IMG/VR virus record: IMGVR_UViG_3300046507_000660
Span: 1 to 64,000 of that record
Length of the DNA: 64,000 nucleotides
Strand: one strand, 5' to 3'
Source: an uncultured virus (IMG/VR IMGVR_UViG_3300046507_000660)
Lineage: Duplodnaviria > Heunggongvirae > Uroviricota > Caudoviricetes
The translations under genes were made by a program, and so were the position numbers. Below, piece by piece: positions 15,071 to 46,617 of the stretch (position 1 is the first letter of the stretch; each line of letters begins with the position of its first letter). The notes under the pieces were generated by a model. That model searched no databases. It saw nothing but the letters and a program-made list of their open reading frames with translations, and was not told the origin of the DNA.

Positions 15071-15086
15071 CCGGGCAACCAAGAGA

Positions 15087-19048: not shown

Positions 19049-20218
19049 GTGAGCACCCACGACGACGTCGTCGATGCCGAGATCGTCGACGCGGAGCTCG
19101 TCGAGGACGGCGTCCTGGCGCTCGTCGACGACAGGGCGCCGGTCGTCGACTTCAACACGGTTCTGTACCCCGGGCAGGAGCTGCCCACCGCGGCGGACGC
19201 CCCGAAGTACAGCAAGCGGGACCTGGACGTCAGCGCGGAGACGCAGGCCCTTCTCGAGGACACGGACCCGACCGACACGGGGCCCATGCGGGCCTTCAAG
19301 GACTGGTGCGCTGAGAACGGCCGCGTCGCGATCCCGTGCACGACGGCCACGTACACCGAGTACAGCCGGCACCTGATGGCCCGCGGCCTGAAGGTCTCGA
19401 CGATCAAGAACTACATGTCCCTGATCAAGACGGCGATGCCGCCGGGGAAGAAGCCCGATAACAGCCTCTACCTGCGGCTGTTGGGCAACTACCGGCAGAA
19501 CAACAAGCGGGCGCTGCGCACCCGTCGGTCGTTCCCGATCCGGCTGCCGTACCTGATCCCGATGATGGAGAAGGCGGAGGCGGACAACCGGCCGATCGGC
19601 TGGCGCGACTCGGCGATGTTCGCCTTCGGGTACCGCTTCCTGGGCCGGAGCGTCGAGGACGCGAACCTCGAGATCGAGGACCTGACGTTCATCAACGGCG
19701 GCCTGCGGGTCTGGCTCCCCGAGGACAAGACGCACGACGAGGAGCAGAACCTCGTGCTGATGGACCGGCCGGACCTCCAGCTCGTCCCACGGCTCACCCG
19801 CTGGCTCGACTACATGGCCGACCAGGGCATCACGTCGGGGCCCGTCTTCCGGCACGTCCTCAAGAACGGCATGGTGGCCACCGAGGCGACCCGGAGCAAG
19901 ACGGCCACCAGTCGCGGCCTGCACCTGCGGGGGCAGACCGTGAACGAGCGGGTGAAGTTCTGGTTCGGTGCGGCCGGACTGGTCACGGACGGCAGGCACG
20001 TTTCCTCCCAGGGCATCCGCGCGGGCGCTGCGACCGACCTGGCGGAGAACGAAGCCACGGACGACGAGTTGGAGCGGGCCGGCCGTTGGCGTCCGGGCTC
20101 CCGCGTTCCGCGCGAGGTGTACGTCCGCCCTGCCCAGGCGGAGAGGAACGACCCGTTCGTCAGGGTCCCCGTGCACAACCCGCAGGGGCAGGCGCAGGAA
20201 CCGGAGAAGACGACCTAA
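19049..20218 (+). CDS. Cre-like tyrosine recombinase
   Basis: RDSAMF..GY...GR, EDKT, SSQGIRAGAAT, AGRW, REVYVR. Confidence 0.85.
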   Translation: MSTHDDVVDAEIVDAELVEDGVLALVDDRAPVVDFNTVLYPGQELPTAADAPKYSKRDLDVSAETQALLEDTDPTDTGPMRAFKDWCAENGRVAIPCTTATYTEYSRHLMARGLKVSTIKNYMSLIKTAMPPGKKPDNSLYLRLLGNYRQNNKRALRTRRSFPIRLPYLIPMMEKAEADNRPIGWRDSAMFAFGYRFLGRSVEDANLEIEDLTFINGGLRVWLPEDKTHDEEQNLVLMDRPDLQLVPRLTRWLDYMADQGITSGPVFRHVLKNGMVATEATRSKTATSRGLHLRGQTVNERVKFWFGAAGLVTDGRHVSSQGIRAGAATDLAENEATDDELERAGRWRPGSRVPREVYVRPAQAERNDPFVRVPVHNPQGQAQEPEKTT

Positions 20219-20775
20219 GCAGTCTGGGAGGCGGCTGCCCACTCATCCTCGAGCATGGCGTGCACGACAGAGTCACGCCACTGCCCGGCCTTGCGAACGT
20301 GCTGGCGGATGGTGCCCTCTTCGACCATGCCCGCGGCCGTCATGGTCTTCGCCGACGCCTCGTTGAGCGGGGACCGCGCTCCCCAGACGCGATGCAGGGT
20401 CAGGTCCTCGAACCCGAGACCGAGGAGGAGGCGCACGGTTTCGACTCCGTATCCGACCCCCCACGCGTCCGGGCGCAGCGCGAAGCCGAAGGTGGCCCCG
20501 CGCTGCTGGTGCGGGTCAAGAGCGACCCGGCCGAACCCGATCACATCGTGCGTGTCTTGCTCCACGACAGCGAGCGCGTACTCGCTGCGCGGGTTCGTCG
20601 TGGCTGAAGCGATGGACCTGGCCACGATCTGGCTGACCTGGTCGCGAGTACGCGGCTCGAACGACAGGTGTTCCGTGGCCTCGGGGCTGCCGTAGATGGC
20701 GTGCACCGCATCGACGTCCTCGAGTGTGAGCTCGCGGAGGACCAGACGCGGGCTGGAGCGCTTGACCGGGTACAT
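20215..20775 (-). CDS. GNAT acetyltransferase (RimJ/RimL type)
   Basis: RLVLREL, GFALRPDAWGVGYG, N.AS...M..AGM..EG. Confidence 0.9.
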   Translation of the reverse strand: MYPVKRSSPRLVLRELTLEDVDAVHAIYGSPEATEHLSFEPRTRDQVSQIVARSIASATTNPRSEYALAVVEQDTHDVIGFGRVALDPHQQRGATFGFALRPDAWGVGYGVETVRLLLGLGFEDLTLHRVWGARSPLNEASAKTMTAAGMVEEGTIRQHVRKAGQWRDSVVHAMLEDEWAAASQTA

Positions 20776-20784
20776 GCGGGGACT

Positions 20785-22158
20785 CTACCCGCGGGGCAGC
20801 GCCGGCCGACTCGCCGGGAACGCCTCGATCTCCGCACGGAGATCGCGGGCTACAACGGCCGTACGCGCCGGGCTGGTCATCAGCGCCTGACGGACGCGCA
20901 GCGCCGAGACGACGATGCCGTTGTTCCGGTGTGAGATTGGCAGATCCAGCACGGGCCGAATAGCTGCTGCGGTGCCGTCCACGTCACCGCTGAAGAGCCG
21001 GATCAGCGACAGGTCGCACTGCGATCCCGCGAGGTCTCCGAACGCCCAGTTCGGGGAGTTGGGGTCGCTGAAGCCCTGCACGGCCCGTTCCGCCTGCGCG
21101 GCGAGCTGCGCGTCCCCGTGGCCGAGGAGCGCCTCCGATTCCACCGCGTAGTAGAGCTGCTTCTCCGGGGCGTACGTGAACAGCCCACCGAGCCGGTCCA
21201 GGTCGTCGAGGATGACGTGTTCTCGCCGGTCGTCGGCCTGTTGGTTGACGGCGCGCGTCGTCTCCTCGTCGCCCAGGACCGCGGCGGCGCGGGCCTGAAG
21301 GCCGAGCAGCCACAGCCCGACGGTGCCGCGCAGGCCGGCAGCGGTCGCGGCTCCCTGGCTCGCATAGTGATACGCGTCCTCGGGCTTGTCCGCCCAGTAA
21401 GCGATCAGGGACTTGAGCCCGTCGGTGAGAGCGATGAGCCCTGGATGTTCGGCGGTCCGGGCGCAGGAGGCGGCGACGCGGGTCATAGTCATGGCCTGGT
21501 GCGGGGACTCCATATCGTTGAAGCCCTTGGCGACGAGGAACGACAGCACAGCGGCCTTGACGTTCAGGTCGCGCAAATGTGAGAGCTGCCGGACCCTGCC
21601 GCCCTCGAGGAGGCGGAACACCTGGTCCTGGGTCTCGAGCAGGTCGCCCCAGATCGTCGACAGGGGGTCACGCGGGTATGCGGCGACCAGGCGCCCCACC
21701 TCGTCGTCGAGCAGTCCGAGCGTGTCCTCGCCCACCACCTCGCGGTCTTTGCCCAGGAGAAATTCCTTCGCGCGCTGCACAGCCATCGCGCCCGTCCTTT
21801 TCATCTCGTTCAGGTCCACGTCGTCTTCGGCGTCGGCGTGGAGTGCAGTTGGTGACGCGCCGGTCAGCGGAGCGAAGTTCGGTGTGGTGCCCTCGGGGAC
21901 CTCGGTCCACAGGTCATCAATGCTGTAGCCCAGCATTTCGACGATGACCGGTCGGAAGGTCCGCTGTGGCTTCCTGCCGTCGTAGAACCATCCCTCGACG
22001 GTCTTTGAAGCCGGGTCCACGTTCTCTAAGCCGAGCCTCGCGGCCGCTTTCCTGTAGAGCGGCAAGACGTCCTCGGGGGTTCGTATGCCGCGTGCTTCGA
22101 GGGTGATGCGGAAGAACAACACGGCGCTCGCCTCCCATTTATCCGCCTGGTACGTCAC
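20785..22158 (-). CDS. Streptomyces-type transcriptional regulator (XRE-like N-terminus, TPR-like helical C-terminus); contains a TTA codon
   Basis: KTVEGWFYDGRKPQ...MLGYSIDDLW, long Ala/Leu helical region; divergent from the cassette operon. Confidence 0.7.
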   Translation of the reverse strand: MTYQADKWEASAVLFFRITLEARGIRTPEDVLPLYRKAAARLGLENVDPASKTVEGWFYDGRKPQRTFRPVIVEMLGYSIDDLWTEVPEGTTPNFAPLTGASPTALHADAEDDVDLNEMKRTGAMAVQRAKEFLLGKDREVVGEDTLGLLDDEVGRLVAAYPRDPLSTIWGDLLETQDQVFRLLEGGRVRQLSHLRDLNVKAAVLSFLVAKGFNDMESPHQAMTMTRVAASCARTAEHPGLIALTDGLKSLIAYWADKPEDAYHYASQGAATAAGLRGTVGLWLLGLQARAAAVLGDEETTRAVNQQADDRREHVILDDLDRLGGLFTYAPEKQLYYAVESEALLGHGDAQLAAQAERAVQGFSDPNSPNWAFGDLAGSQCDLSLIRLFSGDVDGTAAAIRPVLDLPISHRNNGIVVSALRVRQALMTSPARTAVVARDLRAEIEAFPASRPALPRG

Positions 22159-22449
22159 TGCCCCGACGGTAGAACGCTGTCCTCATCAAGTTGCCCCATA
22201 CAGACGGTACTTAGCAGTTCCGAGGGAGGTCAGAGGAAGAGCCGAGGAAGACCGTCAACTTTGCACCAAACCCCGAGGGCGATCTGGGGGTAGAGCCGTC
22301 TGCACGACCGTTGCAACGCTCGTAACAGCCCTCGCTGAGAGTGCCCGGACGTGCACATTCATGGATCAGGGAGTCCCCCCATGCCCTCCAGAGTTGCCGG
22401 AGCGACGACAGTCGTACGGACGCCTCGCTCCGTCTGTGGCGGCGACGTG

Positions 22450-22869
22450 ATGAGTGAGCGTTTCAAGGTCGCTGGCCGCCGCGGTGACGCACCGCCTCGG
22501 GCAGAGGACGCATGCCGGGTAGGAGTGATGCGTCGGATTGCCGCAGCGCGGCTCAGGTACTGCGGACTTGAGACGATGCAGAGCGAGGTGGTGCTGATCG
22601 TCTCGGAGCTGCTCACCAATGCGCTTCTGCATAGCGGCACCACGGAGATCAGCTTGAACATCACTGTTCAGGACGGTTCTCTGCACATCGCGGTCGGGGA
22701 CGGTATGCCGGGTGCTGCGGAGCCCAGGGAAGCGGGCGAGGGCGCCGAGTCGGGTCGTGGCCTTGCCCTGGTCGAAGCCTTGGTGGAGGAGAGCGGCGGA
22801 GCCTGGGGAACCAGCGCCGACGGCGCGACGACCTGGTGTCACCTCATGGTCCCCGAAGGGGGATCGTGA
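22450..22869 (+). CDS. HATPase_c ATP-binding protein (RsbW/anti-sigma-like)
   Basis: VSELLTNALLH, V.DG, ESGRGLALV, WG..TTW. Confidence 0.85.
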   Translation: MSERFKVAGRRGDAPPRAEDACRVGVMRRIAAARLRYCGLETMQSEVVLIVSELLTNALLHSGTTEISLNITVQDGSLHIAVGDGMPGAAEPREAGEGAESGRGLALVEALVEESGGAWGTSADGATTWCHLMVPEGGS

Positions 22870-23267
22870 TGGTTGCGGTGACAGTTGACGTAGCCACCCA
22901 GTTATTGAGCCGTCGAGCCTCGACCGATCACGAGACGGTGGGGATGCTCCTCGCCGGCCTGCGTCGCTCCCTCGCTCACGAGGCCATCACCGACGAGCTT
23001 TACGACGACCTGGAGGCCGTGCTCGGTGAGCACGCCCGCCCCGCGCCGCACGAAATCGCGGTCATCGCGGGGCGGTTACGGGCGGCGACAACCACGTTCG
23101 TGGAGATCGTGCCGCACCTCGTGAAGCCCTACCCCGTCGATGAGATGCGCCACCTGATCTACCTGAGTGCCGAGCACCCCCATCCCGAGGATGCGCACGG
23201 CCACCTGCGCCGGTTCGCCCTGGCCGTCCTCGCGCTCCTGGACTTGATGGGAGATGAGGCCTCGTGA
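22869..23267 (+). CDS. Small helical hypothetical protein (DUF6415-like); two TTA codons
   Basis: Coupled to neighbours; HLRRFALAVLALLD tail. Confidence 0.55.
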   Translation: MVAVTVDVATQLLSRRASTDHETVGMLLAGLRRSLAHEAITDELYDDLEAVLGEHARPAPHEIAVIAGRLRAATTTFVEIVPHLVKPYPVDEMRHLIYLSAEHPHPEDAHGHLRRFALAVLALLDLMGDEAS

Positions 23268-24210: not shown

Positions 24211-25236
24211 ATGCACACCACCCCCGAGTTCAGCAGCGTGGAAGGCGCCTACGTGGCCCTCGTCCGGCTGGCCACCGAGGAGTCCGAACACCACATCGCG
24301 GCGCGCGGCAACGAGGCCCGTGAGGTCATCGGCGTGGGATTCCGCCTCACCGACCCTCGCCAGCGCCTGCCGTACCTGGCCGAGCGCAAGGCGAACCCGG
24401 TGTTCCAGTTCGCGGAAGCGCTCTGGTACCTCGCCGGACGCCGGGACCTGGAAATGATCGGCTACTACGCCCCGTCGATGCGCGCCAGCAGCTCCGACGG
24501 CATCCGCCTTGGCGGATCCGCCTACGGCCACACCCTGTTCAGTCCGGCCAGCAGCGCCAAGCAGTCGCAGTTCGACCAGGTGATGGAACTGCTGTCGAAC
24601 GAACCCGACAGCAAGCGTGGATACCTGCCAGTGTTCAGGGCGAAGGAGCTCGCCGACCGCGACAATCCCGACGTCGCGTGTCTGGCCGGCCTGCACCTGC
24701 TCCCTCGGGACGGGCGGCTGCACATGGTCTGCAACATGCGCGCGAACGATCTCGACTGCGGCCTGCTGTCCGACGTCTTCTCCTTCACGATGATCCAGGA
24801 ATACGCGGCCATCCAGCTCGGCCTGGGTCTGGGCACGTACACCCATTTCATCGGGTCCGCCCACGTCAACGACCGCAACGCCGAGCGCGTCAAGCGCGTC
24901 CTGGACGAGGCCGACTCCCGCCCCACCGCGCCCGCCTTCTCGTTCCCGGCGATGCCTGAGAGCACCGAGGGGGCGACCATCGCGCACGTCCTGCAGCACG
25001 AAGAGGCGTTGCGCACGAACCAGCTCCGCTACAACGCCGAACACATCCGCGGCCTGGGCCTGGATCCGTACTGGGAGCAGGTGGTCATGCTGTTCGAGTT
25101 GTACCGGCAGATCCAGCACGACCAGACCGCGGCCGTTGACCCGGGCCTCATGGCCGCGCTCAACCCCGGCCTTCGCTGGCTCATGGAACACAAGTGGCCG
25201 GCCTGCGCCGCGGCCACGGCCGGGGGTGCGCAGTGA
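24211..25236 (+). CDS. Thymidylate-synthase-fold cytidylate 5-hydroxymethylase (MilA-like)
   Basis: FAEALWYL, DSKR, catalytic DVAC, MRAND..G..SDVFSF (Asp at the cytosine-specificity position), GSAH. Confidence 0.8.
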   Translation: MHTTPEFSSVEGAYVALVRLATEESEHHIAARGNEAREVIGVGFRLTDPRQRLPYLAERKANPVFQFAEALWYLAGRRDLEMIGYYAPSMRASSSDGIRLGGSAYGHTLFSPASSAKQSQFDQVMELLSNEPDSKRGYLPVFRAKELADRDNPDVACLAGLHLLPRDGRLHMVCNMRANDLDCGLLSDVFSFTMIQEYAAIQLGLGLGTYTHFIGSAHVNDRNAERVKRVLDEADSRPTAPAFSFPAMPESTEGATIAHVLQHEEALRTNQLRYNAEHIRGLGLDPYWEQVVMLFELYRQIQHDQTAAVDPGLMAALNPGLRWLMEHKWPACAAATAGGAQ

Positions 25237-25250
25237 GGGACGGTAAGCCG

Positions 25251-26282
25251 ATGAGCGGCGCCGTCGTTGAAGGCGTCGACTTCGACCGCCGGGCGGTCAT
25301 CCTGTGTAAGCCGGATGCTGTGGCGCGCGGACTGGTCAACCGAATCCTGGGGATGATCTCCGATGCGGGTATCGCCGTCTCGGACCGCTTAGACCTGGTG
25401 GCTCAGCCGTGGCAACCGCACGTTGTCTACCGGGATCTGCTGGCCGACACCGGTCGGCGTGACCTGCGCGATCTGCCTTCCTACATCGACGACGCATATG
25501 CGGGCCAGAAGGTCACCGTCGCCCTGGCGCACGGCGAGCCGGGCGTGCACGCCCGGCTCCGGCAGCTCATCGGCGACACCGATCCGACCCGGGCGGTTCC
25601 CGGCACGATCCGCGGCGACCTCGGCGACGACAGCCTTGCCGCCGCGCGCGTGGAGAAGCGCCTCGTTCGCAACCTGGTCCACACGTCGGACCATCCGGCC
25701 AGTGCGCGCCGTGAATACGGCACCTGGTGGGGGCCCGGCCGCGGGCTGCAGGTCTCCGACTTCGACCGGTGTTCGGTGATCCTGTGCAAGCCGGACGCTG
25801 TGGAGCGCGGCCTGGTCGACGCCGTACTCGAGCGGATCGACGCTGCCGGCTGCACTGTTGCGAGCCGTCTCGACGTCACGGTGCAGCCGTGGCAGGCCCA
25901 CGTGCACTACTGGGATCTCCTCGTTGACGCCGACTGGTTCCCCGACCGCGACATCCCCGCCTGTCTGGATGACGCGTACGCGGGCAAGGCGGTCACGGTC
26001 GCCCTCGCGTACGGCGAGCCGGGCATCCACGCCCAGCTACGTCAGCTCATCGGGCACTTCGACCCGACCCGGGCCGCCGCCGGCACCATCCGCGGTGACT
26101 ACGGCAACGACAGCCTCGAGGCCGCCCTTGCGGAGAAACGCCTCGTGCACAACCTCGTCCACACCTCGGACGACCCGGACGCAGCCCGCCGTGACTTCGG
26201 CACCTGGTTCGGCGCCGCCCGCCGCGTACTGCTCACCTCCCCGTCCGGCGTGCCGCTTCAGCCCGCGCCTGCCGACCGCTGA
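25251..26282 (+). CDS. Two-domain nucleoside-diphosphate kinase
   Basis: Two copies of ILCKPDAV.RGL...G..DP....GTIRGD.G...NLVHTSD; alternative GTG start at 25233. Confidence 0.85.
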   Translation: MSGAVVEGVDFDRRAVILCKPDAVARGLVNRILGMISDAGIAVSDRLDLVAQPWQPHVVYRDLLADTGRRDLRDLPSYIDDAYAGQKVTVALAHGEPGVHARLRQLIGDTDPTRAVPGTIRGDLGDDSLAAARVEKRLVRNLVHTSDHPASARREYGTWWGPGRGLQVSDFDRCSVILCKPDAVERGLVDAVLERIDAAGCTVASRLDVTVQPWQAHVHYWDLLVDADWFPDRDIPACLDDAYAGKAVTVALAYGEPGIHAQLRQLIGHFDPTRAAAGTIRGDYGNDSLEAALAEKRLVHNLVHTSDDPDAARRDFGTWFGAARRVLLTSPSGVPLQPAPADR

Positions 26283-26307
26283 CCACCCCCAGCCCCTGGA
26301 GGGTCCC

Positions 26308-27498
26308 GTGACTGCTCCCACCACGACTCGCCGTCTGCTGCCGCTACTGACCACCGAGCAGATCCGCGCATTGAAGCCCGAGCTCACTGACGTGATCGAA
26401 TACCGCAAGTCGGGCTTGTCGCTGAACCACATCGTCGGTTGTCCGCTGGAGTGCGGCTACTGCGTCCGTCACCTCTTCGACAACTTCGGCATGAAGACCC
26501 CGCGACGACTGATGAGCGACGATGCCGCAGTCGCCCAGCTCGTCAACCACCCGTACTTCCGGCCGCACAAGACGCCGATCCAGTTGTTGAACCGGGCCAC
26601 CGACCCGATGCTTCCGGTGGTCAAGCCGCACGTCTTCGCGGTGCTTCGGCAGCTCGACGAGCAGGGCCTGACCAACCACGTCTTGGTCATCACCCGGTGG
26701 CGGGTGAGCGCCGAGGACTGCGCCATCCTCAACAGCTTCAAGAACTTGCGGCTGACGATCCTGGTCACCCACTCCGGCATCGACAACCCGGCCATCGAGC
26801 CAGTGAACTCCTCCATCGCTGCCGACAGCTTGCGCATGCTGTACGAGCACGCGGAGCGGTACAGGACCGTCCTGTACTGGCGGCCGATCGTGCCAGGCCT
26901 CAACGACTCCGACGAGCACATCGAACGGGCCCGCGAACTGTCTCTGCACGCGCACGCCACCGTGTTCACCGGCCTGTTCTTCCGCGAGCAGATAGCCGCC
27001 TACTACAAAGAGCACGGCATGCCGATGCCGTACGAGGACACCGCCCGGCGGAAGATCATGCCGCAGGAGGCGGAACAGCGAATCCTGAGCGCCTTCGAAT
27101 CGGCCAAACTCCCCGGAGGGGCACCGTGGGGGACGCTGTTCCGCAAGACGAGCTGCGGGGTCGCCTACGCCCACGATGAGGCCGACTACAACGGCCACTA
27201 TGGCGTCAAGGAGCTGTGCGACATCTGCCCGCCCGCCCAGATCGCTGCGTGCGCGAAAGCCTGGGTCAAGCCCGATCTGGCGGAGGTCACCCGCGAGGCG
27301 CGTGCACTCGGCGCGATTGGCGACGTTGAGATCAACGACCGTGCCATCGTCGTTGAGGGACTGGACGAGCCGCCCCGCTACTTCCTGCAGCACGGGTTCG
27401 GCTACCAGTGCCACGACCGCGCCAAGCCCCACCACTACCGCCAACACGGCCGGGCCCCCATCGGCTGGGAGGCGGAGGACGGACCCGACACCCCATGA
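26308..27498 (+). CDS. Radical SAM enzyme (spore-photoproduct-lyase-like branch)
   Basis: SLNHIVGCPLECGYC (CxxxCxxC), ATDP, RPIVPGLND; GGAGG RBS. Confidence 0.8.
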   Translation: MTAPTTTRRLLPLLTTEQIRALKPELTDVIEYRKSGLSLNHIVGCPLECGYCVRHLFDNFGMKTPRRLMSDDAAVAQLVNHPYFRPHKTPIQLLNRATDPMLPVVKPHVFAVLRQLDEQGLTNHVLVITRWRVSAEDCAILNSFKNLRLTILVTHSGIDNPAIEPVNSSIAADSLRMLYEHAERYRTVLYWRPIVPGLNDSDEHIERARELSLHAHATVFTGLFFREQIAAYYKEHGMPMPYEDTARRKIMPQEAEQRILSAFESAKLPGGAPWGTLFRKTSCGVAYAHDEADYNGHYGVKELCDICPPAQIAACAKAWVKPDLAEVTREARALGAIGDVEINDRAIVVEGLDEPPRYFLQHGFGYQCHDRAKPHHYRQHGRAPIGWEAEDGPDTP

Positions 27499-28100
27499 AC
27501 TTCTCTGCCTGGCCCCCGCTGCTCGTCGTCGACGTCGAAGGCAACGGGACCACCCCGCCCGACCTCGTCGAGATCGCGGCCCTGCCCATCAGGGACGGCC
27601 AGCCTGACACGACGACGGCCAAGGCGTGGCTGATCCGTCCCGCGCGCCCGGTGACAGCGCACGCCGCGAGCATTCACGGCCTGACCAATGCCGTCTTGGC
27701 GGACTGTCCCACGTGGCCGACGATCGCCGAGACCGTCCGTGGCTTCCTCGGCACCACGTGGATCGCCGCCCACAACGCACACGTCGAGTATCGGGAGCTG
27801 GGCCGTCACCTGCCGGGATGGGCGCCGGCCGGAGTCATCGACACCCTGCGCCTCGCCAAGGCCACATACGTGGACCTGCCCGCCTACAGCCTCGACGCGC
27901 TGATCAAGCACGTCGGGCCAGACCTGACGCAGGCCCCGCGCACGGGCCGACACCGTGCGACGTACGACGCGTACGCCACGGCGCAGCTCCTGCTCGCCAT
28001 GGCCGCTGAATACGACACCTGGGACCAGTTCATCGCCGCCGCGGTGCCGCCGCGCCTGCCCGGTGCCCCCCAACCAGAAAAGGACCCCACCCTGTGGTGA
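27495..28100 (+). CDS. DEDDh 3'-5' exonuclease
   Basis: VVDVEG, IHGLT, AHNA, IDTLRLA, HRATYDA. Confidence 0.85.
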   Translation: MNFSAWPPLLVVDVEGNGTTPPDLVEIAALPIRDGQPDTTTAKAWLIRPARPVTAHAASIHGLTNAVLADCPTWPTIAETVRGFLGTTWIAAHNAHVEYRELGRHLPGWAPAGVIDTLRLAKATYVDLPAYSLDALIKHVGPDLTQAPRTGRHRATYDAYATAQLLLAMAAEYDTWDQFIAAAVPPRLPGAPQPEKDPTLW

Positions 28101-28693
28101 CTCCCGTCCAGACCCTCCGGATTGGCGTGCTCGGCACCCACTCCACCGGCAAGACGACGCTCTTCAAGCGCATAGAGATGGAGCTGCGCGCCCAAGGGGT
28201 CACTGTGGCGCGCACGGGCCGACTCGCCAAGCGTGCCGCAGCGGCAGGCCTGCCGAAGATGCAGCACCACACCGCGCAGTCCACGGAGTGGATCATCACG
28301 CAGGGCATCGCGGACGAGATCGGCGCGGTCGCCCAGGGCGCCGAGGTCGTCCTCGTGGACCGGGCCGCTCACGACGCCATCGCCTACTTCTACGCCGCGC
28401 TGGAGTACCGCGGTGAAGTCCCGCCGCGGCTGGAGCGCGAACGCCTCCTCACGCTCGCCTCCACGCAACTGCCGAAGTACGACCTGCTGTTCGCGACGGT
28501 GCTCGACGAGAGCGTGCCCGTCGATACCGGCCACGACTACGACGCCCGCTATCGACGGCTCGTCGACCAGCACGTGCACCGTCTCCTGGCCAACGACGAC
28601 ATCCCCCACCAGCGGGTCACCAGCGATCCCGACAGCCAGGCACACGCGATTGAGCAGACCGTGCAGCTCTGCCTGAAGGAGGCCGCCGTATGA
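28094..28693 (+). CDS. P-loop nucleoside monophosphate kinase-like protein
   Basis: GTHSTGKTT, LVDRAAHD..AY, YDLLF. Confidence 0.75.
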   Translation: MVTPVQTLRIGVLGTHSTGKTTLFKRIEMELRAQGVTVARTGRLAKRAAAAGLPKMQHHTAQSTEWIITQGIADEIGAVAQGAEVVLVDRAAHDAIAYFYAALEYRGEVPPRLERERLLTLASTQLPKYDLLFATVLDESVPVDTGHDYDARYRRLVDQHVHRLLANDDIPHQRVTSDPDSQAHAIEQTVQLCLKEAAV

Positions 28694-29469
28694 ATCAGGC
28701 CCCGCCCGCTGGCACCATCACCATCGCCGGGAAGTCGGTCTCTCGGCTGGGGTTCGGCACCATGCGCCTGACCGGGCCCGGCACGTGGGGAGACCCCGTC
28801 GACCGCGACACCGCGCTCAGTGTGCTCAGGCAGGCCGTGCACACGCACGGCATCACGCATATCGACACCGCGGACGCCTATGGTCCTCACACCGTCGAGC
28901 ACCTGGTCCGCGAAGCGCTCTACCCGTACCCGGAGGACGTGCTGATCGCCACGAAGGTGGGCCTGCTGCGCCCCGCCCCGGGCCAGTGGGTACCGCTCGG
29001 CAACCCCTTCTATCTGCGCGCAAGCGTCGAAGCCAGCTTGCGCCGCTTGCGAGTCGACCGGCTGGAGCTGTGTTACCTGCACCGCATCGACCCCGAGGTG
29101 GCGCTCGACGATCAGATTGCCGTCATGCAGGCGCTGCAGGACGAGGGCAAGATCGGGCACATCGGCCTGTCGAAGGTCACGCCCGAGCACATCCGGCTGG
29201 TGGGTAAGGGCCTGACCATTGCCGCGGTGCAGAACGTCCTCAACACGACCGACCGCTTCGACCCGGCTGTGGAGCTTTGCCGGGACCTGGGCATCCCGTA
29301 CGTGGCGTACAGGCCGCTCGACGCTGGCACCTTGGCCCGCGTGAACGGGCCGCACGCGCCGCTGCACTGGCTCCTCGAACACGGCTCCCACATCGCGCCC
29401 ATTCCGAGTACCAGCAAGCCCGGCCACCTCGACGAGATCGTGGCCGCGGTCCAGGGCGGCGCGGCCTGA
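28690..29469 (+). CDS. Aldo/keto reductase
   Basis: RLGFGTM, IDTADAYG, IATKVG, SLRRL..D..YLHR, GKI.HIGLS. Confidence 0.9.
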   Translation: MNQAPPAGTITIAGKSVSRLGFGTMRLTGPGTWGDPVDRDTALSVLRQAVHTHGITHIDTADAYGPHTVEHLVREALYPYPEDVLIATKVGLLRPAPGQWVPLGNPFYLRASVEASLRRLRVDRLELCYLHRIDPEVALDDQIAVMQALQDEGKIGHIGLSKVTPEHIRLVGKGLTIAAVQNVLNTTDRFDPAVELCRDLGIPYVAYRPLDAGTLARVNGPHAPLHWLLEHGSHIAPIPSTSKPGHLDEIVAAVQGGAA

Positions 29470-30059
29470 TGCCGGCCGCGGCCACAGCCGAGATACCCGC
29501 GCAGCGTCGACGTGCCGCATACGAGAACTGGCGGCCGCCGGTGATCGGGGTGCAGCTGCTCGTCCCCGTCGGGGCCGGTTGCTTGCTGGTCGCCGAGACA
29601 CTGGGCAGCATCGTCTTACCCGTCGATGCCGTGCACGGCGGAGAGAGTCCGTGGCAGGCAGCCCAACACGTGCTTCTCGGCGCATCGGACACCATCCCTG
29701 TTCTACGGCGCGTTGTACTGGACCAGAAGCAGATGCGACGGCGGAAGGTCATCACACACGTCCTCGCGACTGCTTCCATGTCCCGCGGAGACGTTGCCCC
29801 GCTCACCTACCGGGACCCGCGTGGGGAATTACGCGTGCTGCCCACTGATCGGGTCATCGACCGTCTGCCCACTCTGGCGAGGCCGCGGGTCCTTCTCGCG
29901 TTGCAGGCGCTTGCCGTGGGCGAGACCGCCTATCTGGAAGACGGCGTTTTGCGGGATTCGCCGCCCGCGGAGCTCGTGATCGACAGCACCGACATACCTC
30001 CATCGGAGGTTGCGCACCGAATCGCAAGCCTTCCGGCCGGGCAGTTGCCCGGCCGGTAG
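29469..30059 (+). CDS. Degenerate NUDIX-fold protein; two TTA codons
   Basis: LP.DAVHGGESPWQAAQH lacks the REUXEE acids; GETAYLEDG tail typical of Streptomyces NUDIX proteins. Confidence 0.5.
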   Translation: MPAAATAEIPAQRRRAAYENWRPPVIGVQLLVPVGAGCLLVAETLGSIVLPVDAVHGGESPWQAAQHVLLGASDTIPVLRRVVLDQKQMRRRKVITHVLATASMSRGDVAPLTYRDPRGELRVLPTDRVIDRLPTLARPRVLLALQALAVGETAYLEDGVLRDSPPAELVIDSTDIPPSEVAHRIASLPAGQLPGR

Positions 30060-30084
30060 GCCCCCACCGCTCGGATGGAGCACA

Positions 30085-30528
30085 GTGCCCCAGCAGCCCG
30101 TAAACGACGTGATGATCATCCTCGAGCGCGACGGAGCCGTGTGCCTTGCCGAGCGGCAGGGCACCGGCTACGCCGACGGCATGCTGAACCTGCCCTCCGG
30201 CAAGCTCGAGAAGAACGAGGACGTATTCGACGCCGTGGCCCGGGAGGCGTGGGAAGAAGCGGGCATCGTTGTCCAGCGTGACGCCCTGCAGATCGTTCAC
30301 GTCATGCACTTCCGGAACCCGGAGGAGGAGCCCCGGGTCGGCTGGTTCTTCATCGCCCGCCACTGGGAGGGGGAGCCACGGAACATGGAGCCGCACAAGT
30401 GCGCAGGCCTGTCCTGGCACCCCATCGGTCAACTCCCCAACAACACCGTCCCGTACAACGCGCTGGGCATCGCGCACTACCTCAAGGGCGAGCCGTTCTC
30501 CGTACACGGTTGGGAGAGGTCCGCGTAG
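30085..30528 (+). CDS. NUDIX hydrolase
   Basis: LPSGKLEKNEDVFDAVAREAWEEAG; NMEPHKC. Confidence 0.9.
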   Translation: MPQQPVNDVMIILERDGAVCLAERQGTGYADGMLNLPSGKLEKNEDVFDAVAREAWEEAGIVVQRDALQIVHVMHFRNPEEEPRVGWFFIARHWEGEPRNMEPHKCAGLSWHPIGQLPNNTVPYNALGIAHYLKGEPFSVHGWERSA

Positions 30529-31279: not shown

Positions 31280-31675
31280 GTGACTACTCAGCAACCTCAG
31301 CCGTCGAGCGATGAACCGATCGCCCATAACCCGGACCTCATCGGGCCTGCGGTTCCCGACGCGAAGATCGGCCGGGAGGCCTTCGGGCTTCTCCTGCTCT
31401 CGTTCGGTGTGCTCGGCGGCCTCGGTGCGCTGGGTGCCCTGCACTGGGTCGCCGGTCTGTCAGCCGCGCTCATCGGCCTGTGTGCCAGTGGCGTCGTTGT
31501 CCGCCGCAACAGCAAGCAGCGATGGCAGCAAGACGCTGGCGCCATGGTCGCCTTCGCCGCCTACGCGGGGCAGACCGCCCTCCTGTTCTACCTGCTGCAG
31601 CCGCTCGGATGGCTGGCCGTCAGCTCCCTCGGCATAGCCGCTGGCCTGTGGCTGTCCAGCGATGAGGGGGCCTGA
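31280..31675 (+). CDS. Membrane protein preceding portal
   Basis: Four hydrophobic segments; leaderless GTG after promoter motif at 31244-31272. Confidence 0.65.
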   Translation: MTTQQPQPSSDEPIAHNPDLIGPAVPDAKIGREAFGLLLLSFGVLGGLGALGALHWVAGLSAALIGLCASGVVVRRNSKQRWQQDAGAMVAFAAYAGQTALLFYLLQPLGWLAVSSLGIAAGLWLSSDEGA

Positions 31676-34155
31676 TGCCCCGCCAACTCTTCCCAGGGCT
31701 CCGCGGCCTCCTTGTTCCTCGAGGCGCCGTGGAGCCAGCAGCCGCGACCGCGCCCGTCGAGACGAAGGACCTGCTCGCAGGGGGCGTCTACTCGTCGATG
31801 TCGTACGCCGGCGTCACGAACGTGTGGGGCACCCCGGGCCGCGCGGACGGCTGGGACCTCGAGCGCGTCATTGTCGAGGGCTACGAGCGCTCCATCTGGA
31901 CCTTCAAGTCCGTGGAGGCGATCAGCAAGCACGCCTCCACCCTGCCCATCCAGATCGGCCGTGGCGGCGACGAGCGACAGTTCGCTGAGGTCCTCAAGGA
32001 CCACCCGCTGTACAAGCTGCTCAACCGGAAGGCCAACCCGCTCGAGACCGGCGATGTCTTCAAGAAGCGGCTGAGCGCCCAGTTGCTGCTGAGTAAGAAG
32101 GGTGTGTTCGTAGAGAAGACGAAGAACCGGCGCGGGGTGCTGACCCGGCTCGACCTGCTGCCACCGGACCGCGTCCGCATCATCCCGGACACCGAGAACT
32201 CCGCCTATGTGAGCCATTTCGAGCTCACGGAGTACAACGGCCGCATCCGTGAACTGCCGCCGGAAAAGGTCATCTGGATCAGAGACCCGCACCCCACGGA
32301 CCCGTTCTGCGGCGTGACCCCGCTCGAGGCCGCTGGGCTGTCGGTCGACCTGGACGTCAAGGCCCGCACCTACAACATCTCCTTTATCAACAATGACGGC
32401 CGCCCTGGCGGCATCGTCGGTATCGACCTGGACGGCGTCGACTCGTCAGAGGTCAAGCGGATCCAGAAGCGGCTCGAGCCGGGCGCGCACAACGCCGGAC
32501 AGCTCACCCTCGTGGGCACCGGACCCGGCGGTGTCACGTACGTCGACACGTCGGCCCGCCCGCGGGAGATGGCATACGAGACGCTCGCCAGCACCTCGAA
32601 AAACGAGATCCTCTCCGCCTTCGGCGTGCCGGAGAGTGTGATCGGCAACGCCAGCGAGCGGACGTTCGCGAACGCCGACCGGGAGGAGTACACGTTCTGG
32701 GCTCACACCGAGCTCCCCCACCTCAACCTGCTTGCGTCGGCGTTCGACTCGGACCTGTCGGACGAGTGGGTGATCCGGTTCGACACCTCCCGCATTCAGG
32801 CGCTCGAGTTTCCCCGCCGTCAGGCCCGCGAGGAAGCGCGCAAGGAGTGGGAGTCGGGTCTCATCACCATCGACGAGTACCGGGTGGCGGCCGGGCGTAC
32901 GCCCTTCAACACCCCGCAGTCCCGTGCGCTGTGGATCAGCCCGCAGAAGGCACCCGTCCCCGCCAACGCCCAGGACGCGGCCGCGCTCGGCCTCTCCGAC
33001 CCGGGCGGCGCTCCGGGCGCAGGCGGCGCCCCCGGAGCAGGCCCGGATGCTGGGCCGCCCGCGGTCGGCGGGAGCCAGTCCGCCGCCGCGGCGGTCGCCG
33101 AGGCCCGCACCGACGAACCCGGTCCGAAAGCAGCCGATGACGTAGCTGCGGCCCGCGGGCAGGCACCCCTCGAGCCGTCCGCCGGATCAGACTCGCCCGC
33201 GGCCGGCGCCGTGGCGGATGCCCGCGCCGACGTCACGGACGACACCCCCGGGGAAGCAGCCGACAACGTTGCGGCCGCCCGCGCCAGCATGGTGCAGCCC
33301 GAGGCCGGGCCCGCCGCCGAGGAAGTCGAGCGGGCACGCACTCAGCTCGAGACCAAGGCGCTCCGCGACGACAACGGGTTCGAGGTCACCGACGACGACT
33401 TCGACGCCCTCGCCGCAGCCATCGAGGCGGCCCTCACTGCGCTTCTGGCGCGCCAGGAGGGCGTCATCGTCGCCCGGCTCCACGCTCCGAAGATCCGCAA
33501 GCACACCAGGTTCTGGACGCCGGAGAACGACAACGACACCCGCGGAGGCGACGCCAACCTCGACGAGGACCGCGTCGTCAGCGCGGCCCGCTGGGCGGAG
33601 GAGACCACCAACACCCTCACCCCGATCCTGCAGCCGGCCGCGGCCGCCACCGCTCGCAAGCTGAGCAAGGCAGTCACCGGCACCGAGACGGTGCCCCCGG
33701 CCGCAGTCGCGCCCGCCCTCGTCACCGCGGCGCACGCCGGGGAAGCGATGACCGCGTTCCTCATCGAACTCGCCGCCGTGCTGCACCAGGCCCAGGCCGA
33801 CCCGAACCTCGACCTCGACACGCTGAAGCACGTGGTCGGCGGCTTCTACAACTCGGCCGGCCCCGATCTCGCCGCCCGGGTCGCGGAGACCTGCGCCGTC
33901 TCGACCATCAACGGGGCCGCGGACGCCGCAGCAGAGAACGCCGGACCCGGAGTCGTCCGGACATGGCTCACCCGCCAGGACGACCGCGTACGGCCCGCGC
34001 ACCGCGCCCTACAGGGCAAGACGCTGCCCGTCGGCACGCCGTACGAGATCGACGGCGCCCAGCTCCGTTACCCCGGCGACCCGTTCGCCCCGCTCGCCCT
34101 GACGATCAACTGCCGTTGCCGTCTCCACTACGCCACAGACGAGGACGTGAACTGA
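31675..34155 (+). CDS. Portal protein fused to a MuF/gp7-like head morphogenesis domain
   Basis: HPLYKLL..ANP, F.NDGRPGG, ILSAFGVP, TFANA; C-terminal WLTRQDDRVRPAH...LRYPGDP...INCRC. Confidence 0.85.
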   Translation: MPRQLFPGLRGLLVPRGAVEPAAATAPVETKDLLAGGVYSSMSYAGVTNVWGTPGRADGWDLERVIVEGYERSIWTFKSVEAISKHASTLPIQIGRGGDERQFAEVLKDHPLYKLLNRKANPLETGDVFKKRLSAQLLLSKKGVFVEKTKNRRGVLTRLDLLPPDRVRIIPDTENSAYVSHFELTEYNGRIRELPPEKVIWIRDPHPTDPFCGVTPLEAAGLSVDLDVKARTYNISFINNDGRPGGIVGIDLDGVDSSEVKRIQKRLEPGAHNAGQLTLVGTGPGGVTYVDTSARPREMAYETLASTSKNEILSAFGVPESVIGNASERTFANADREEYTFWAHTELPHLNLLASAFDSDLSDEWVIRFDTSRIQALEFPRRQAREEARKEWESGLITIDEYRVAAGRTPFNTPQSRALWISPQKAPVPANAQDAAALGLSDPGGAPGAGGAPGAGPDAGPPAVGGSQSAAAAVAEARTDEPGPKAADDVAAARGQAPLEPSAGSDSPAAGAVADARADVTDDTPGEAADNVAAARASMVQPEAGPAAEEVERARTQLETKALRDDNGFEVTDDDFDALAAAIEAALTALLARQEGVIVARLHAPKIRKHTRFWTPENDNDTRGGDANLDEDRVVSAARWAEETTNTLTPILQPAAAATARKLSKAVTGTETVPPAAVAPALVTAAHAGEAMTAFLIELAAVLHQAQADPNLDLDTLKHVVGGFYNSAGPDLAARVAETCAVSTINGAADAAAENAGPGVVRTWLTRQDDRVRPAHRALQGKTLPVGTPYEIDGAQLRYPGDPFAPLALTINCRCRLHYATDEDVN

Positions 34156-34728: not shown

Positions 34729-34746
34729 CCAGGGGGCGAGAGGCCA

Positions 34747-34775
34747 CTTGCCCAATTGGGCAAGAACGATCTTGG
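34747..34775. promoter_or_regulatory. 18-bp palindrome CTTGCCCAATTGGGCAAG plus AACGATCTTGG, copy 1
   Basis: Four near-identical intergenic copies. Confidence 0.85.
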
Positions 34776-34834
34776 AGTATGGCGCGGCCATCACCACGCG
34801 ACGCTAACCACGCGTGATGTGCATGGTCCGCGCC

Positions 34835-37800
34835 ATGCTGAATCGCCCCGCTGCTGCGCACGCTGAGTTGCAGGACCTGAGTGACGGTCTCGAGGTCAAG
34901 GCCGCCCGCCGTTGGAACCCGTCCCTGCATCCTCGCGACAGCAAGGGCAGGTTTATCGAGACGGGCGGCATCGTCCGCCTGTGGGGAGGCGATCTCGCGC
35001 GCGTCATGCGCGCCCTGCCCAACGATCGCATCCTCGTGCAGGACCAGACCGGCCCGGACGAATTCAACGGCCGCAGGCACACCACCAGCGCCAAGTGGGT
35101 GTCCATGGTGGCCCGCCCCGATGGCTCCGCGCCCACCGACAACGAGCACAAGGTCGAGGCGGAGGACGAGAAGCGGGACAAGGACGCGCGGCGCGGCAAC
35201 GGCGTCGTCCACGACGACCCCGGCGACCCCGACACCCCCAACGACGCCCACGCCGTCGACGACCGCGGCCGCCCGATCGGCGAGGACGACCACCCCGTCG
35301 GGCCTCGCGAGAACGACGACCAGGCCGAGCCCGAGCACGGCAGGCACCCGGTCAACGTCCGCGCCCTGCCCAACCAGAGCACCGCGGGCGGTAGCCGCTT
35401 CCAGGACACGGCGGCAGTCCGTCAGCACTTCCTCGACCTGGCCGACCGGCCCGACACCCGGCCGGAGATGGCGCAGTTCCTGCGTTCCGTCGCCACTGAC
35501 GAGGACCTGCGCGTCTCGGGCGACCTGGCCGTCCTCCGCGACGACTCCACCGGCCGCTGGTACCTGACGGCGACCGGCACCGGTCAGCGCATGGACCTCG
35601 CCGGCGACTTCGCCACCCCCGAGGAGGCCAGCGAGTTCGCACGCCATCTCAGGCGCACCGCTCCGACCAAGGGCACTGCGATCCGCTCCCTTGCCCGGGG
35701 GTTTGACTTCTCCAACCCCGACCTTGACGCCGAGGCGCGCACCTGGCGCTCGGACAGGGACGAGAACATCGCGGCCGCCATCAAGCGGGCCCGCGGGGAA
35801 TTCGACGCTTCCCGCTCCGCCCCCGCCTCCGATGCCGCCCGCGCCCCGCACGCCGACGCCGGCACTCCGGAGACGGTCAGCCGCGAGGAGCTCAAGCCCG
35901 GCGACCGCGTCAAGGTCACCGTGAGCCGCAGCGACATCGAGTGGCCGACGAGCACCCGCGACCAGGACAAGCCGGAGACGGTCACCGTCGAGGGCACCAT
36001 CGCGCCCACCCACTCGGCCGGCCCGGGTGTAAGCGGCGCAACGCTCGTCGACGTCACGCTGACCAGCCCGGACGGCACGGTCATGACGTCCGGCGACACC
36101 GCACGCATCCGGCGCATGCCCACCCAGGTCGCACGCTCCGGGCACACCGACGGCTTCACCCCGGAGGAACGGCGTGCCGACCGCGTCCGTGTCGGCGACG
36201 TCATCGCCCGCGGGGAGTTCGGGCACGTCGTCACGCGCATTGACCGCGGTCAGGGCGGCCGCGCTTTCACCACGCGCAACCTCGGCGGCCGTGGCGAGGT
36301 CGACCAGTTCGGCGCCCGCCACGGCGACATGCTGTCCGTCGTCCCGAAGGCCCGCCGCCGGCCGGAGGATGTGCAGCGCGACACCCCGGGCCACACACAG
36401 CAGCACCCCAACAGCAGGGATGCCAAGGGCGCGGCCGCGGCGATCCTCAGCGACTGGGCGAAGGTCAACGAGCTCGCCGCGCAGCAGTGGCCGGACGGGG
36501 CACCGGAGGAGTTCCGCACCCTGGCCCAGCACATGCAGAACGTCACGGACGCCCCGAAGGGCGCCGACGGCTACCAGCAGAACGCCGACGCGATGCGCGG
36601 CGCCCTGGACGCGCTCCACGGCCTCGACAGCGAGGGCGTCAGCCAGGACATGGTGAAGGCGCTGCACCGGCTCGAGGAGGGCCTGGACGCCAACGCCGAC
36701 CGGTTCGAGGCCGACTCCCGGGCGATCACGGAGAACAAGCGGAAGCGGGAGGCGGTCAACGCCCCGAACCCGGACGCTCCGGCCGCCCCGAACGCCCCGC
36801 AGAGCAACGCCCCCACGAACGACCATCCGACGGGTGAACCGCTACAGCACAACTGGGACCCCGAGAACCTGGTCACCCTGACCATGCCGGAGGCGCTCGC
36901 GAACTTCCTGAACGTCGACGAGACCGCGGCTATGGACGACCCCGACACCCGGAAGGCCCTCACAGAAGCCGTCCACGGCCGCAACGGCACGCTCAAGGTG
37001 ACCGCACCGATCGAGACGCACCGCGCCCTGCTCGAGTGGGCGTGGACGCTCGCAGGCGGCGAAGGACTGGACTCCGACCCGAAGGAAGTCCGGGCCCACC
37101 GCAACTACACCAAGCGCGTCGACGAGGCCGCGGCAAAGCTGGAGCGCGAGCGGCAGCACCGCGGCGCCCCGGACGCGAACGGGAACGCACCCGACGCCGG
37201 CACCGGTGACGGTAAGACAGATGCGCCGTCGGCCAACACCCCCGGCGCCGACACCAGCGAGCCGCAGAACACCCCGGACACGGTCACCATGACGCCCGAC
37301 GAAGTGTCCAACCACCTCGACGCGGTGCGCTCCGAAGGCTCCAAGGCGCCGTCACGCATGGACGACGGCGAGATCCGCGACGAGATCGTCTCCCTGATGG
37401 AGCGGGAGATGGCCAACGGCGGGGAGCTGTCGGGAGTCGACCGCACCCGCCTCCAGGTCCTCGAGGCGGAAGAGGCCCGCCCCGCCGGCCGCGCGCCGAA
37501 GCGCGAGGACAAGCCGAAGCCGAAGCCCGCGGAGGAGCCCGGCGGCCTGTTCGACGTCGCCCCGGACGAGCAGCAGCAGTTCGTTGCCGACCCGAACAAC
37601 CCCGACGACCTGGCGGACGACCCGCTGGGCACGCCGGACATGTTCGCCAACCACGAAGGCCGCGACACGTCCCGGCTGCGCCCCCCGCAGTCCCGCAAGC
37701 CTGCCGACTTCAAGCCCGGCGACCGGTTCGTCGACACCGACGGGCGTACCCACACCGTGAAGGAGGAGCCGATACGGACCCCGCGCGGCCGTATCCGCGT

Positions 37801-46612: not shown

Positions 46613-46617
46613 TCCGA

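Follow-up and report, generated by a model that had tools for sequence, protein, structure and literature searches.

What is a set of enzymes that make and handle nucleotides doing in the genome of a phage? This question is raised by a stretch of DNA from an uncultured virus (IMG/VR record IMGVR_UViG_3300046507_000660), of whose single 75,446-base contig we analyzed the first 64 kb (64,000 nucleotides, ~69% G+C), hereafter called the window. An original prediction, made from the sequence of the window, held that eight tightly linked genes between positions 24211 and 30528 encode a pathway for the modification of cytidine nucleotides. All eight open reading frames (ORFs) are present on the + strand (Table 1), and the analysis presented here reduces the set to seven. 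The reading that we favor, to which we assign a chance somewhat short of even, is that these seven genes make and handle a modified pyrimidine (cytidine) nucleotide as a conflict system, directed against phages or competitors, that is viperin-like in its logic rather than by family. We favor it because the enzymes that can be named act on nucleotides or on 3′ ends, because the unit is mobile and patchily distributed, and because its copies outside the actinomycetes reside in defence islands.

The first seven genes form one operon, as evident by the overlap of successive stop and start codons. From the thymidylate synthase (TS)-like gene through to the NUDIX-like gene these overlaps are GTGA, ATGA, GTGGTGA, ATGA and TGATG, and the sole non-overlapping junction is a gap of 25 to 40 bases located 5′ of the radical S-adenosylmethionine (SAM) gene. 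A scan for promoters and terminators was uninformative at 69% G+C.

To place the borders of the unit, related loci were collected by a genome scan with a 12-sequence alignment of the radical SAM protein, which confirmed at least 531 relatives among 600 candidate stretches. Counts out of 80 given below refer to the best 80 of these, all from actinomycetes and with radical SAM proteins of 72-88% identity, and co-occurrence was counted within 9 kb of the radical SAM gene at a query coverage of at least 50%. The eighth gene of the original prediction, which encodes an active MutT-like NUDIX hydrolase, has a homologue near the cassette in just 3/80 loci and is absent from plasmid copies. It shares 85.6% DNA and 83% amino acid identity with gp43 of Streptomyces phage Gilgamesh, and the match of positions 24211-30528 to phage records is confined to the last 476 bases, which correspond to this gene. 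The proposal that all eight genes constitute one unit was rejected for these reasons, and the active NUDIX gene is instead assigned to the phage backbone, where it marks the right border of the cargo.

Gene order in the window is syntenic with that of Gilgamesh through the FtsK-like, RusA, integrase, MutT-like gp43, gp44, portal-MuF and giant ORF positions. Because Gilgamesh carries none of the seven operon genes, and because its similarity to the window resumes at approximately base 30053, we take the cargo to span the interval from the integrase to this point; the only genes common to Gilgamesh and the cargo-side region are the integrase, an anti-sigma-like gene, gp38, gp43 and gp44. The same absence rules out the cassette as a component of the Gilgamesh-type backbone. 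Searching 50,697 phage records with the radical SAM protein (tblastn) gave no match. Judged by its gene content, the carrier is an integrase-bearing, Gilgamesh-like phage or prophage. Its earlier designation as a phage-plasmid is unproven, since an integrase and synteny with Gilgamesh are present and partition or replication genes were not recognized among the ORFs scanned.

The product of the first operon gene has as its best solved relative the CMP 5-hydroxymethylase MilA (5jnh, E = 3.1e-80, 273 bits, residues 4-339), and both 5jnh and 5b6d are matched among MilA structures. ThyA proteins are matched with a best E of 1.2e-11, and the T4 dCMP hydroxymethylase (1b49) with E = 1e-5. An ordinary ThyA can be ruled out from the difference between the MilA and ThyA values (3e-80 versus 1e-11) and from the Asp that takes the place of the TS Asn. 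According to the published account of MilA (PMC5175136), catalysis depends on Cys155 and Glu68, Asp186 is the hallmark of enzymes that use cytosine, Lys133 and Ala176 stand for the Arg and Ser of deoxy-specific enzymes, the A176S/K133R exchange flips the preference from CMP to dCMP, and His216 and Tyr218 form hydrogen bonds to the 2′-OH.

Most of these positions are retained in the 73 cassette homologues that were aligned, in which C157, D188, K135, A178 and H218 are each found in 73/73 sequences and E69 in 72/73. The motifs DSKR, MRAND and LSDVFSF, which the original prediction had linked to MilA, all align to that protein, and the cytosine-type Asp and the CMP-type Lys/Ala that it had named are invariant. 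Its broader claim that the enzyme follows MilA closely agrees with the overall score and these signature residues, but the enzyme is not a plain MilA, as evident by the replacement of Tyr218 in every homologue (Asn in 51, Gly in 19, Cys in two, Ala in one). Two divergent phage copies (L099 and L101, 44-47% identity) keep the Lys, Asp, His and Asn residues and carry Gly for Ala. The altered sugar-contact residue may mean that the substrate has a different or already altered sugar, and the predicted reaction is the conversion of CMP to 5-hydroxymethyl-CMP. As the original prediction had stated, no glycosidase follows: scans with Pfam and NCBIfam recognized nothing like MilB or BcmB in the 12 cargo genes, of which three small proteins lack an assignment, or in conserved neighbors.

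Kinases that could carry such a product toward a triphosphate had also been anticipated, and two are encoded by the operon. The structural model of the AAA_28 protein (pLDDT 91.1) has thymidylate kinases as its top Foldseek matches, with Pseudomonas TMK aligning at a TM score of 0.65-0.70 and 21-23% identity, and further matches include Mycobacterium TMK and the kinase domain of NadR (TM 0.65). From this fold, we predict that the protein is a pyrimidine nucleoside monophosphate (NMP) kinase; an enzyme that phosphorylates 5-substituted pyrimidine monophosphates, with an NDK acting after it, would suit a path that ends in the triphosphate. The nucleoside-diphosphate kinase (NDK) is a tandem protein whose halves are ~80% identical as DNA (25488-25728 versus 25968-26208), and whose translation begins either at the GTG at 25233, which overlaps the TS stop codon, or at the ATG at 25251.

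The radical SAM enzyme proved more difficult to place. Its CX3CX2C motif (C41, C45 and C48) is invariant in 31/31 aligned sequences, down to 25% identity, as are C279, C300, C303 and C311 near the C-terminus. An AlphaFold model of high quality (pLDDT 91.3, pTM 0.91) matches radical SAM structures, including AprD4. The closest is spore photoproduct lyase (SPL), but this match covers residues 1-277 only, at 12-14% identity, and scores barely above those of other radical SAM enzymes. Viperin is not the closest solved fold, ranking below SPL and PFL-AE. The C-terminal region (approximately residues 278-366) lies outside the SPL coverage, and its four Cys residues indicate that it is probably an auxiliary Fe-S cluster domain.

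No curated family in Pfam, NCBIfam or PADLOC accommodates this protein, and a profile search of the PDB returned nothing below E = 0.07. The Pfam Radical_SAM match is insignificant (E = 0.12), and the best NCBIfam match, to ‘mobile pair protein B’, reaches E = 0.0017 with 18 bits against a cutoff of 410. PHROGs places the protein in one family of unknown function, the ESM Atlas gave no lead, and neither did two long fused homologues when compared with the PDB. Membership in the viperin family was considered and rejected, because no viperin model in PADLOC, Pfam or NCBIfam is matched at E<=0.01, and SPL membership likewise, because no SPL model is among the NCBIfam or Pfam matches. The family is compact, with 656 representative clusters at E<=1e-3, and 93 at E<=1e-30, among 1.84 billion.

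Three further proteins complete the operon. The exonuclease has the NCBIfam matches DEDD exonuclease, exodeoxyribonuclease X and epsilon subunit, and its residues D13, E15, H153 and D158 do not vary among 31 sequences. It is followed, after the kinase, by an aldo-keto reductase (AKR) and by a protein that finds no Pfam family match. For the latter, the original prediction of a ‘dead NUDIX’ is reasonable: the ESM Atlas returns NUDIX clusters at TM 0.62-0.66 (24/30 feature hits, to be taken as a lead only), and the glutamate positions of the REUXEE box are non-acidic in 49/49 aligned homologues.

Co-conservation of these genes, as had been proposed, is evident across the 80 actinomycete loci. 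The exonuclease gene accompanies the radical SAM gene in 80 of them, the TS-like gene in 76 and the kinase gene in 72, and the counts for the AKR (at least 57) and the NUDIX-like protein (at least 44) are lower bounds owing to contig edges. When the coverage filter is omitted, 79/80 loci have an NDK hit 5′ of the radical SAM gene (35 tandem-sized, 44 shorter). The order TS-NDK-radical SAM-exonuclease-kinase(-AKR) is collinear on six Streptomyces plasmids, and in two of these that were compared as protein, the products are 68-83% identical to those of the window, the NUDIX-like protein is 49-57% identical, and the active NUDIX is missing. In two genomes (L009 and L012), the entire 12-gene block of the window from the GNAT gene to the NUDIX-like gene is kept at 66-91% identity.

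By its distribution, the cassette is an accessory, mobile unit, and it is phage cargo in the window because Gilgamesh exists without it. The radical SAM gene occurs in 21/301 sampled genomes of one genus (E<=1e-50; some of these matches are fragments), and the cassette is found in chromosomes of 7-12 Mb and on plasmids of 0.4-1 Mb. Beyond the anti-sigma-like ATPase, its flanks are variable, with scattered genes for WhiJ-type regulators, DUF6415 proteins, GNAT enzymes, methyltransferases and relaxases. Fragmentary radical SAM matches (70-89% identity over 25-45% of the length; plasmid hits H51, H55 and H61, genomes G209, G047 and G072) suggest decayed cassette copies in some Streptomyces replicons. 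On the S. anthocyanicus plasmid NZ_CP109230.1 (L004, positions 1411-9647), a divergent radical SAM gene (24-35% identity) precedes the same exonuclease-kinase-AKR-NUDIX-like tail, and genes for a GT4 glycosyltransferase, a hexapeptide-repeat transferase, a class II aldolase and a MurA-like enzyme replace those for the TS-like protein and NDK. This arrangement suggests that the front ends of the module are interchangeable.

A smaller set of genes extends well beyond the actinomycetes. Radical SAM proteins of 50-56% identity are encoded on plasmids (tblastn) of Mesorhizobium, Sinorhizobium, Rhizobium, Agrobacterium, Roseibium/Labrenzia, Gluconobacter and Nostoc, and further copies of the core, with identities of 45-57%, were met both on plasmids of alphaproteobacteria and Nostoc and among the prophages of IMG/VR. 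The order radical SAM-exonuclease-kinase is found in 7/8 non-actinomycete plasmid records, with Nostoc lacking the exonuclease, and neither a TS-like gene nor an NDK gene is present in any of the eight; such records are few, some of the plasmids are near-duplicates, and they include one of eight Labrenzia/Roseibium records. A fourth gene on these plasmids encodes an HD protein of ~476 amino acids in four cases (Labrenzia, two Sinorhizobium and Rhizobium) and an AKR in one (Gluconobacter), and is lacking in three. The HD protein, whose gene follows that of the kinase (L087, L091-L093), is related in sequence to the EF1143-type dNTP triphosphohydrolase 2o6i (E = 2.1e-43) and to SAMHD1 (~3e-20), and again points to the handling of (deoxy)nucleotides.

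Eight IMG/VR viral contigs also carry the module. Four have full cassettes of the Streptomyces type, two of which are then followed by a Gilgamesh gp44 homologue; two more are from divergent actinomycete phages with TS-NDK-radical SAM-exonuclease(-AKR) genes beside lysis and tail genes, and the last two are of the proteobacterial type. From this gene distribution, the core that crosses phyla is the trio of radical SAM enzyme, exonuclease and kinase, and the hydroxymethylase, NDK, reductase and NUDIX-like protein are an actinomycete extension.

Flanking genes were scanned with PADLOC-DB 2.0.0 (2023) in nine of the ten non-actinomycete loci, all except that of Nostoc, and defence genes directly adjoin the core in 9/9. 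In A. vitis these are GajB of Gabija (E = 1.8e-225), a dGTPase (1.2e-146), a WYL protein and ThsB of Thoeris (5.4e-114). The S. chiapasense locus has SduA of Shedu (2.6e-121) and QatC (2.1e-31), that of S. meliloti a CBASS phospholipase (5.7e-102), cyclase (3.2e-147) and E1-E2 protein (1.7e-230), and that of Rhizobium the Lamassu proteins LmuA, LmuB (4.6e-127) and LmuC. Immediately upstream of the core in a Mu-like prophage are SIR2 (7.9e-94) and HerA (5.2e-177), and a second viral contig carries a dGTPase (2.4e-74), a DpdJ-like helicase and a methylase. The remaining neighbors are a HamB-like helicase in Mesorhizobium (7.5e-45), a type IIG restriction-modification protein in Labrenzia (6.8e-28) and, with a weak match, DUF3800/PDC-S51 in Gluconobacter (6.5e-11). 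These neighbors speak for the earlier ‘antiviral, viperin-like’ proposal, although the radical SAM enzyme itself does not belong with the viperins.

A conflict system of this kind might operate as follows. The MilA-like enzyme would place a C5 hydroxymethyl group onto a cytosine nucleotide, which the Lys/Ala pair suggests is CMP, with a sugar pocket altered by the exchange of Tyr218 for Asn. On the strength of its fold, the thymidylate-kinase-like protein is predicted to convert the monophosphate to the diphosphate, and the tandem NDK is expected, by homology, to take the diphosphate on to the triphosphate. The radical SAM enzyme, which besides its single SAM cluster probably has a second, auxiliary Fe-S cluster, might conduct radical chemistry on the sugar, such as diol dehydration or oxidation. 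The AKR would then reduce the resulting carbonyl, and the net product could be a deoxy or epimerized nucleotide that blocks or poisons polymerases. There is precedent for such a pair of steps in AprD4, a radical SAM diol dehydratase that works with a separate NADPH reductase to achieve net deoxygenation. The DnaQ-like exonuclease might strip the analogue from the 3′ ends of the carrier, or else supply monophosphates, and the dead NUDIX-fold protein might bind or sequester the nucleotide, a role that the SAMHD1-like HD hydrolase may take in the alphaproteobacteria. Further alteration by the radical SAM enzyme and reductase, and self-protection by the nuclease and NUDIX, were also part of the original prediction; these roles remain conjectural, and the active NUDIX lies outside the cassette.

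We also entertain, as possible yet doubtful, a more specific version of the conflict-system reading. Here the radical SAM enzyme, DnaQ-like exonuclease and thymidylate-kinase-fold kinase would be the core of a widespread, undescribed anti-phage family that makes a polymerase-poisoning pyrimidine nucleotide, with the proofreading exonuclease and the HD or NUDIX-like helpers keeping the analogue out of the nucleic acids of the carrier, and the Streptomyces/phage version would first hydroxymethylate cytidylate. The trio is found in Actinomycetota, Alphaproteobacteria and Cyanobacteria, where plasmids and prophages carry it. No description of the gene set was found in the open-access papers and bioRxiv preprints searched, supplements aside.

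Several observations weigh against a conflict system. The defence signal in actinomycetes is weak: in a sample of 16 of 61 full-length loci (125 flank ORFs, E<=1e-20), two have clear systems (in one, Cas1/Cas2 alongside a pAgo-associated nuclease; in the other, a CBASS of four genes), four are ambiguous (kinase or mad3-like matches) and ten have none. PADLOC-DB 2.0.0 (2023) holds no model for the module itself, and its matches in the cassette region are a generic DEDDh/PDC-S48 assignment for the exonuclease and PDC-S07 for the backbone NUDIX. The Lys/Ala pair suggests a ribonucleotide substrate, but three other features (the DnaQ-like exonuclease, the thymidylate-kinase fold and the SAMHD1-like partner) speak for deoxynucleotides, and it takes an assumption for the proposed sugar chemistry to bring the two together. 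Because AKR and HD proteins are alternatives rather than partners, the AKR-reduction step is not universal. Finally, an exonuclease that removes terminators would also rescue a phage unless it is specific.

Other functions for the cassette must be weighed against the same observations. The close homology to MilA, the Streptomyces hosts, a nearby DUF6415 gene whose product is labeled a ‘natural product biosynthesis protein’ in plasmid annotation, and the AKR, a typical tailoring enzyme, would all suit a small gene cluster that makes a nucleoside antibiotic or antimetabolite for secretion against competing bacteria or fungi, with the exonuclease and the NUDIX-like or HD protein conferring self-resistance. 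Such a cluster would follow the logic of the MilA/BcmA routes or of thmABC, the latter being a precedent (PMC12691670). We nevertheless judge this unlikely, given that no MilB/BcmB-type glycosidase, exporter or nucleoside-releasing phosphatase was recognized in the conserved set, that the NDK and kinase push toward a triphosphate, which is not exportable, and that the core sits in defence islands in 9/9 non-actinomycete loci scanned. It is highly improbable that the cassette is a DNA-repair module of mobile elements, in which an SPL-like radical SAM enzyme would undo damage to a pyrimidine and the ends would be processed by the exonuclease and kinase. JGI labels radical SAM homologues ‘DNA repair photolyase’ and the DnaQ-like exonuclease is an obligate partner (80/80 loci), but the SPL resemblance is weak and confined to residues 1-277, no SPL family model in NCBIfam or Pfam is matched, the steady linkage is to nucleotide-pool enzymes (TS-like, NDK, TMPK-fold kinase, and AKR or SAMHD1-like HD), and the genomic context is that of defence islands.

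A T4-style supply of modified (deoxy)cytidine triphosphate for the DNA or RNA of the element itself, which would evade restriction or CRISPR, is a further option that we consider quite unlikely. The order of hydroxymethylase, NMP kinase and NDK does mirror the hydroxymethyl-dCTP pathway of T4, which employs the dCMP hydroxymethylase gp42, the dNMP kinase gp1 and the host NDK, and thymidine hypermodification pathways similarly combine a TS homologue, a P-loop kinase and a radical SAM isomerase. The cassette is carried by phages and plasmids, and the dCTP deaminase of the phage together with two NUDIX domains could bias nucleotide pools. However, Lys135 and Ala178 (or Gly) are of the CMP type rather than the dCMP-type Arg/Ser in 73/73 homologues and in the divergent L099 and L101, and copies residing in large chromosomes and plasmids would cause all cellular DNA to be modified. 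The related phage Gilgamesh does without the cassette, the proteobacterial core does without the TS-like gene, and no polymerase, glycosyltransferase or transferase is co-conserved.

The remainder of the window is occupied by other cargo genes and by the phage backbone (Table 1). By its relationship to Gilgamesh, the tyrosine integrase is a backbone gene and the left border of the variable cargo region. Between it and the operon, the HATPase_c_2 gene has homologues upstream of the cassette in 27-32/80 loci and also in Gilgamesh, and the Cys-rich protein has 28% identity to Gilgamesh gp38. The dCTP deaminase encoded near the terminase gene is a further nucleotide-pool enzyme of the phage, and could interact with a cytidine pathway. 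Among the structural genes, the product of the 3839-amino acid ORF is acidic and rich in Pro and Ala, and the gene has as its syntenic counterpart in Gilgamesh the hypothetical gene 48, of 13.9 kb. The protease-NUDIX fusion constitutes the third NUDIX-type module of the window. Repeats of ~30-50 bases, both direct and inverted and of 88-100% identity, were found by self-BLAST at 34740-34788, 46616-46663 and 53763-53867; they are placed at three gene boundaries in the structural region and may be regulatory. A tail-fibre gene encoding 1886 amino acids contains tandem direct repeats of ~150-330 bases (78-89% identity) at record positions 68089-69745, past the window.

Table 1. Predicted features of the window, with the operon first, then other cargo genes and then the phage backbone, whose genes were named by PHROGs and Pfam. 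Counts of loci refer to occurrence near the cassette.
Feature	Position	Strand	Basis and remarks
MilA-like pyrimidine-nucleotide C5-hydroxymethylase, TS fold	24211-25236	+	Thymidylat_synt E 1.5e-16; PDB 5jnh
Two-domain (tandem) NDK	25233-26282	+	PF00334 E 2.7e-36, two stretches
Radical SAM enzyme, unnamed family	26308-27498 (or start 26320)	+	SPL-like core and C-terminal four-Cys domain
DnaQ-like DEDDh 3′-5′ exonuclease	27495-28100	+	PF00929 (RNase_T) E 1.5e-16
P-loop kinase, thymidylate-kinase-like fold (AAA_28)	28094-28693	+	PF13521 E 1.2e-9; phrog_2107 ‘thymidylate kinase’ E 1.3e-9
AKR	28690-29469	+	PF00248 E 3.9e-51
NUDIX-fold protein without catalytic NUDIX box, 196 aa	29469-30059	+	ESM Atlas structure rows
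GNAT acetyltransferase (cargo, not core)	20215-20775	-	Acetyltransf_3 E 4.1e-25; 5/80 loci
NsdA-family TPR-like regulator, divergent from operon	20785-22158	-	NCBIfam NF053720 E 1.7e-14, under its cutoff; 11/80 loci
HATPase_c_2 anti-sigma-factor-like ATP-binding protein	22351-22869	+	PF13581 E 1.5e-10
DUF6415 protein	22836-23267	+	PF19979 E 3.7e-11; 9/80 loci
Cys-rich hypothetical protein, 244 aa	23264-23998	+	phrog_30088 (unknown function) E 2e-18; 17/80 loci
Large terminase	49-1845		backbone
dCTP deaminase	2952-3536	+	PF22769 E 9.7e-49; phrog_1663 E 3.9e-59
FtsK-like translocase	8214-10214	-	backbone
RusA	14501-15082	-	backbone
Tyrosine integrase	19049-20218	+	Pfam Phage_integrase E 3.8e-8; 68% aa identity to Gilgamesh gp32
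Active MutT-like NUDIX hydrolase	30010-30528	+	PF00293 E 3.1e-15
Portal-MuF fusion	31675-34155		backbone
3839-aa ORF	34814-46333	+	between portal-MuF gene and protease
Prohead protease-NUDIX fusion, 805 aa	47439-49856	+	Peptidase_S78 E 1.9e-10; NUDIX E 3.2e-16
Major head protein, tail proteins, tape measure, then tail fibres	3′ of protease-NUDIX fusion		backbone
Poly-gamma-glutamate hydrolase	56037-56672	+	PF05908 E 9.9e-59; among structural genes

If the conflict-system reading is true, the cassette would provide a second radical SAM route to antiviral nucleotide analogues, unrelated to that of viperin. It would protect its carrier through an exonuclease, a dNTPase or a NUDIX-like protein. 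Its front end would be modular, with the MilA-like enzyme and NDK in the window and enzymes of sugar-nucleotide type on a single plasmid of S. anthocyanicus. The window’s version would yield a new antiviral nucleotide derived from hydroxymethyl-cytidine, with which a temperate phage arms its host, and it could represent a new nucleoside scaffold of pharmacological interest.

Comparison with known systems helps to define what is distinctive about this arrangement. The MilA and BcmA routes share with the cassette the catalytic Cys and Glu, the cytosine-selecting Asp and the Lys/Ala pair. They differ in that Tyr218 is never kept in the cassette enzymes, no MilB or BcmB glycosidase follows, and the neighbors are instead a kinase, an NDK, a radical SAM enzyme and an exonuclease. 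SPL is set apart by gene context, which here is nucleotide metabolism rather than sporulation or repair. Prokaryotic viperins (pVips) are often found with nucleotide kinases; the cassette enzyme differs from viperin and the pVips by its four-Cys C-terminal domain and by its obligate DnaQ-like exonuclease partner. With the T4 pathway, which also includes a dCTPase, the cassette has in common that a monophosphate kinase and then an NDK act after a cytosine hydroxymethylase of the TS fold, whereas its Lys/Ala pair is of the ribo type, its radical SAM enzyme, reductase and exonuclease are without T4 counterparts, and it also resides in chromosomes and on plasmids. A further parallel is thmABC of Photorhabdus (PMC12691670). 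That mobile three-gene cluster, whose flanks are variable, yields 4′-thiothymidine and joins a radical SAM enzyme and a nucleoside kinase to an NTPase that confers resistance. It has an NTPase where the cassette has an exonuclease, its kinase is AbmG-like, and its product is a secreted antibiotic, but both are mobile units with variable flanks that combine a radical SAM enzyme and a kinase with self-resistance by nucleotide hydrolysis, a function that is presumed in the cassette.

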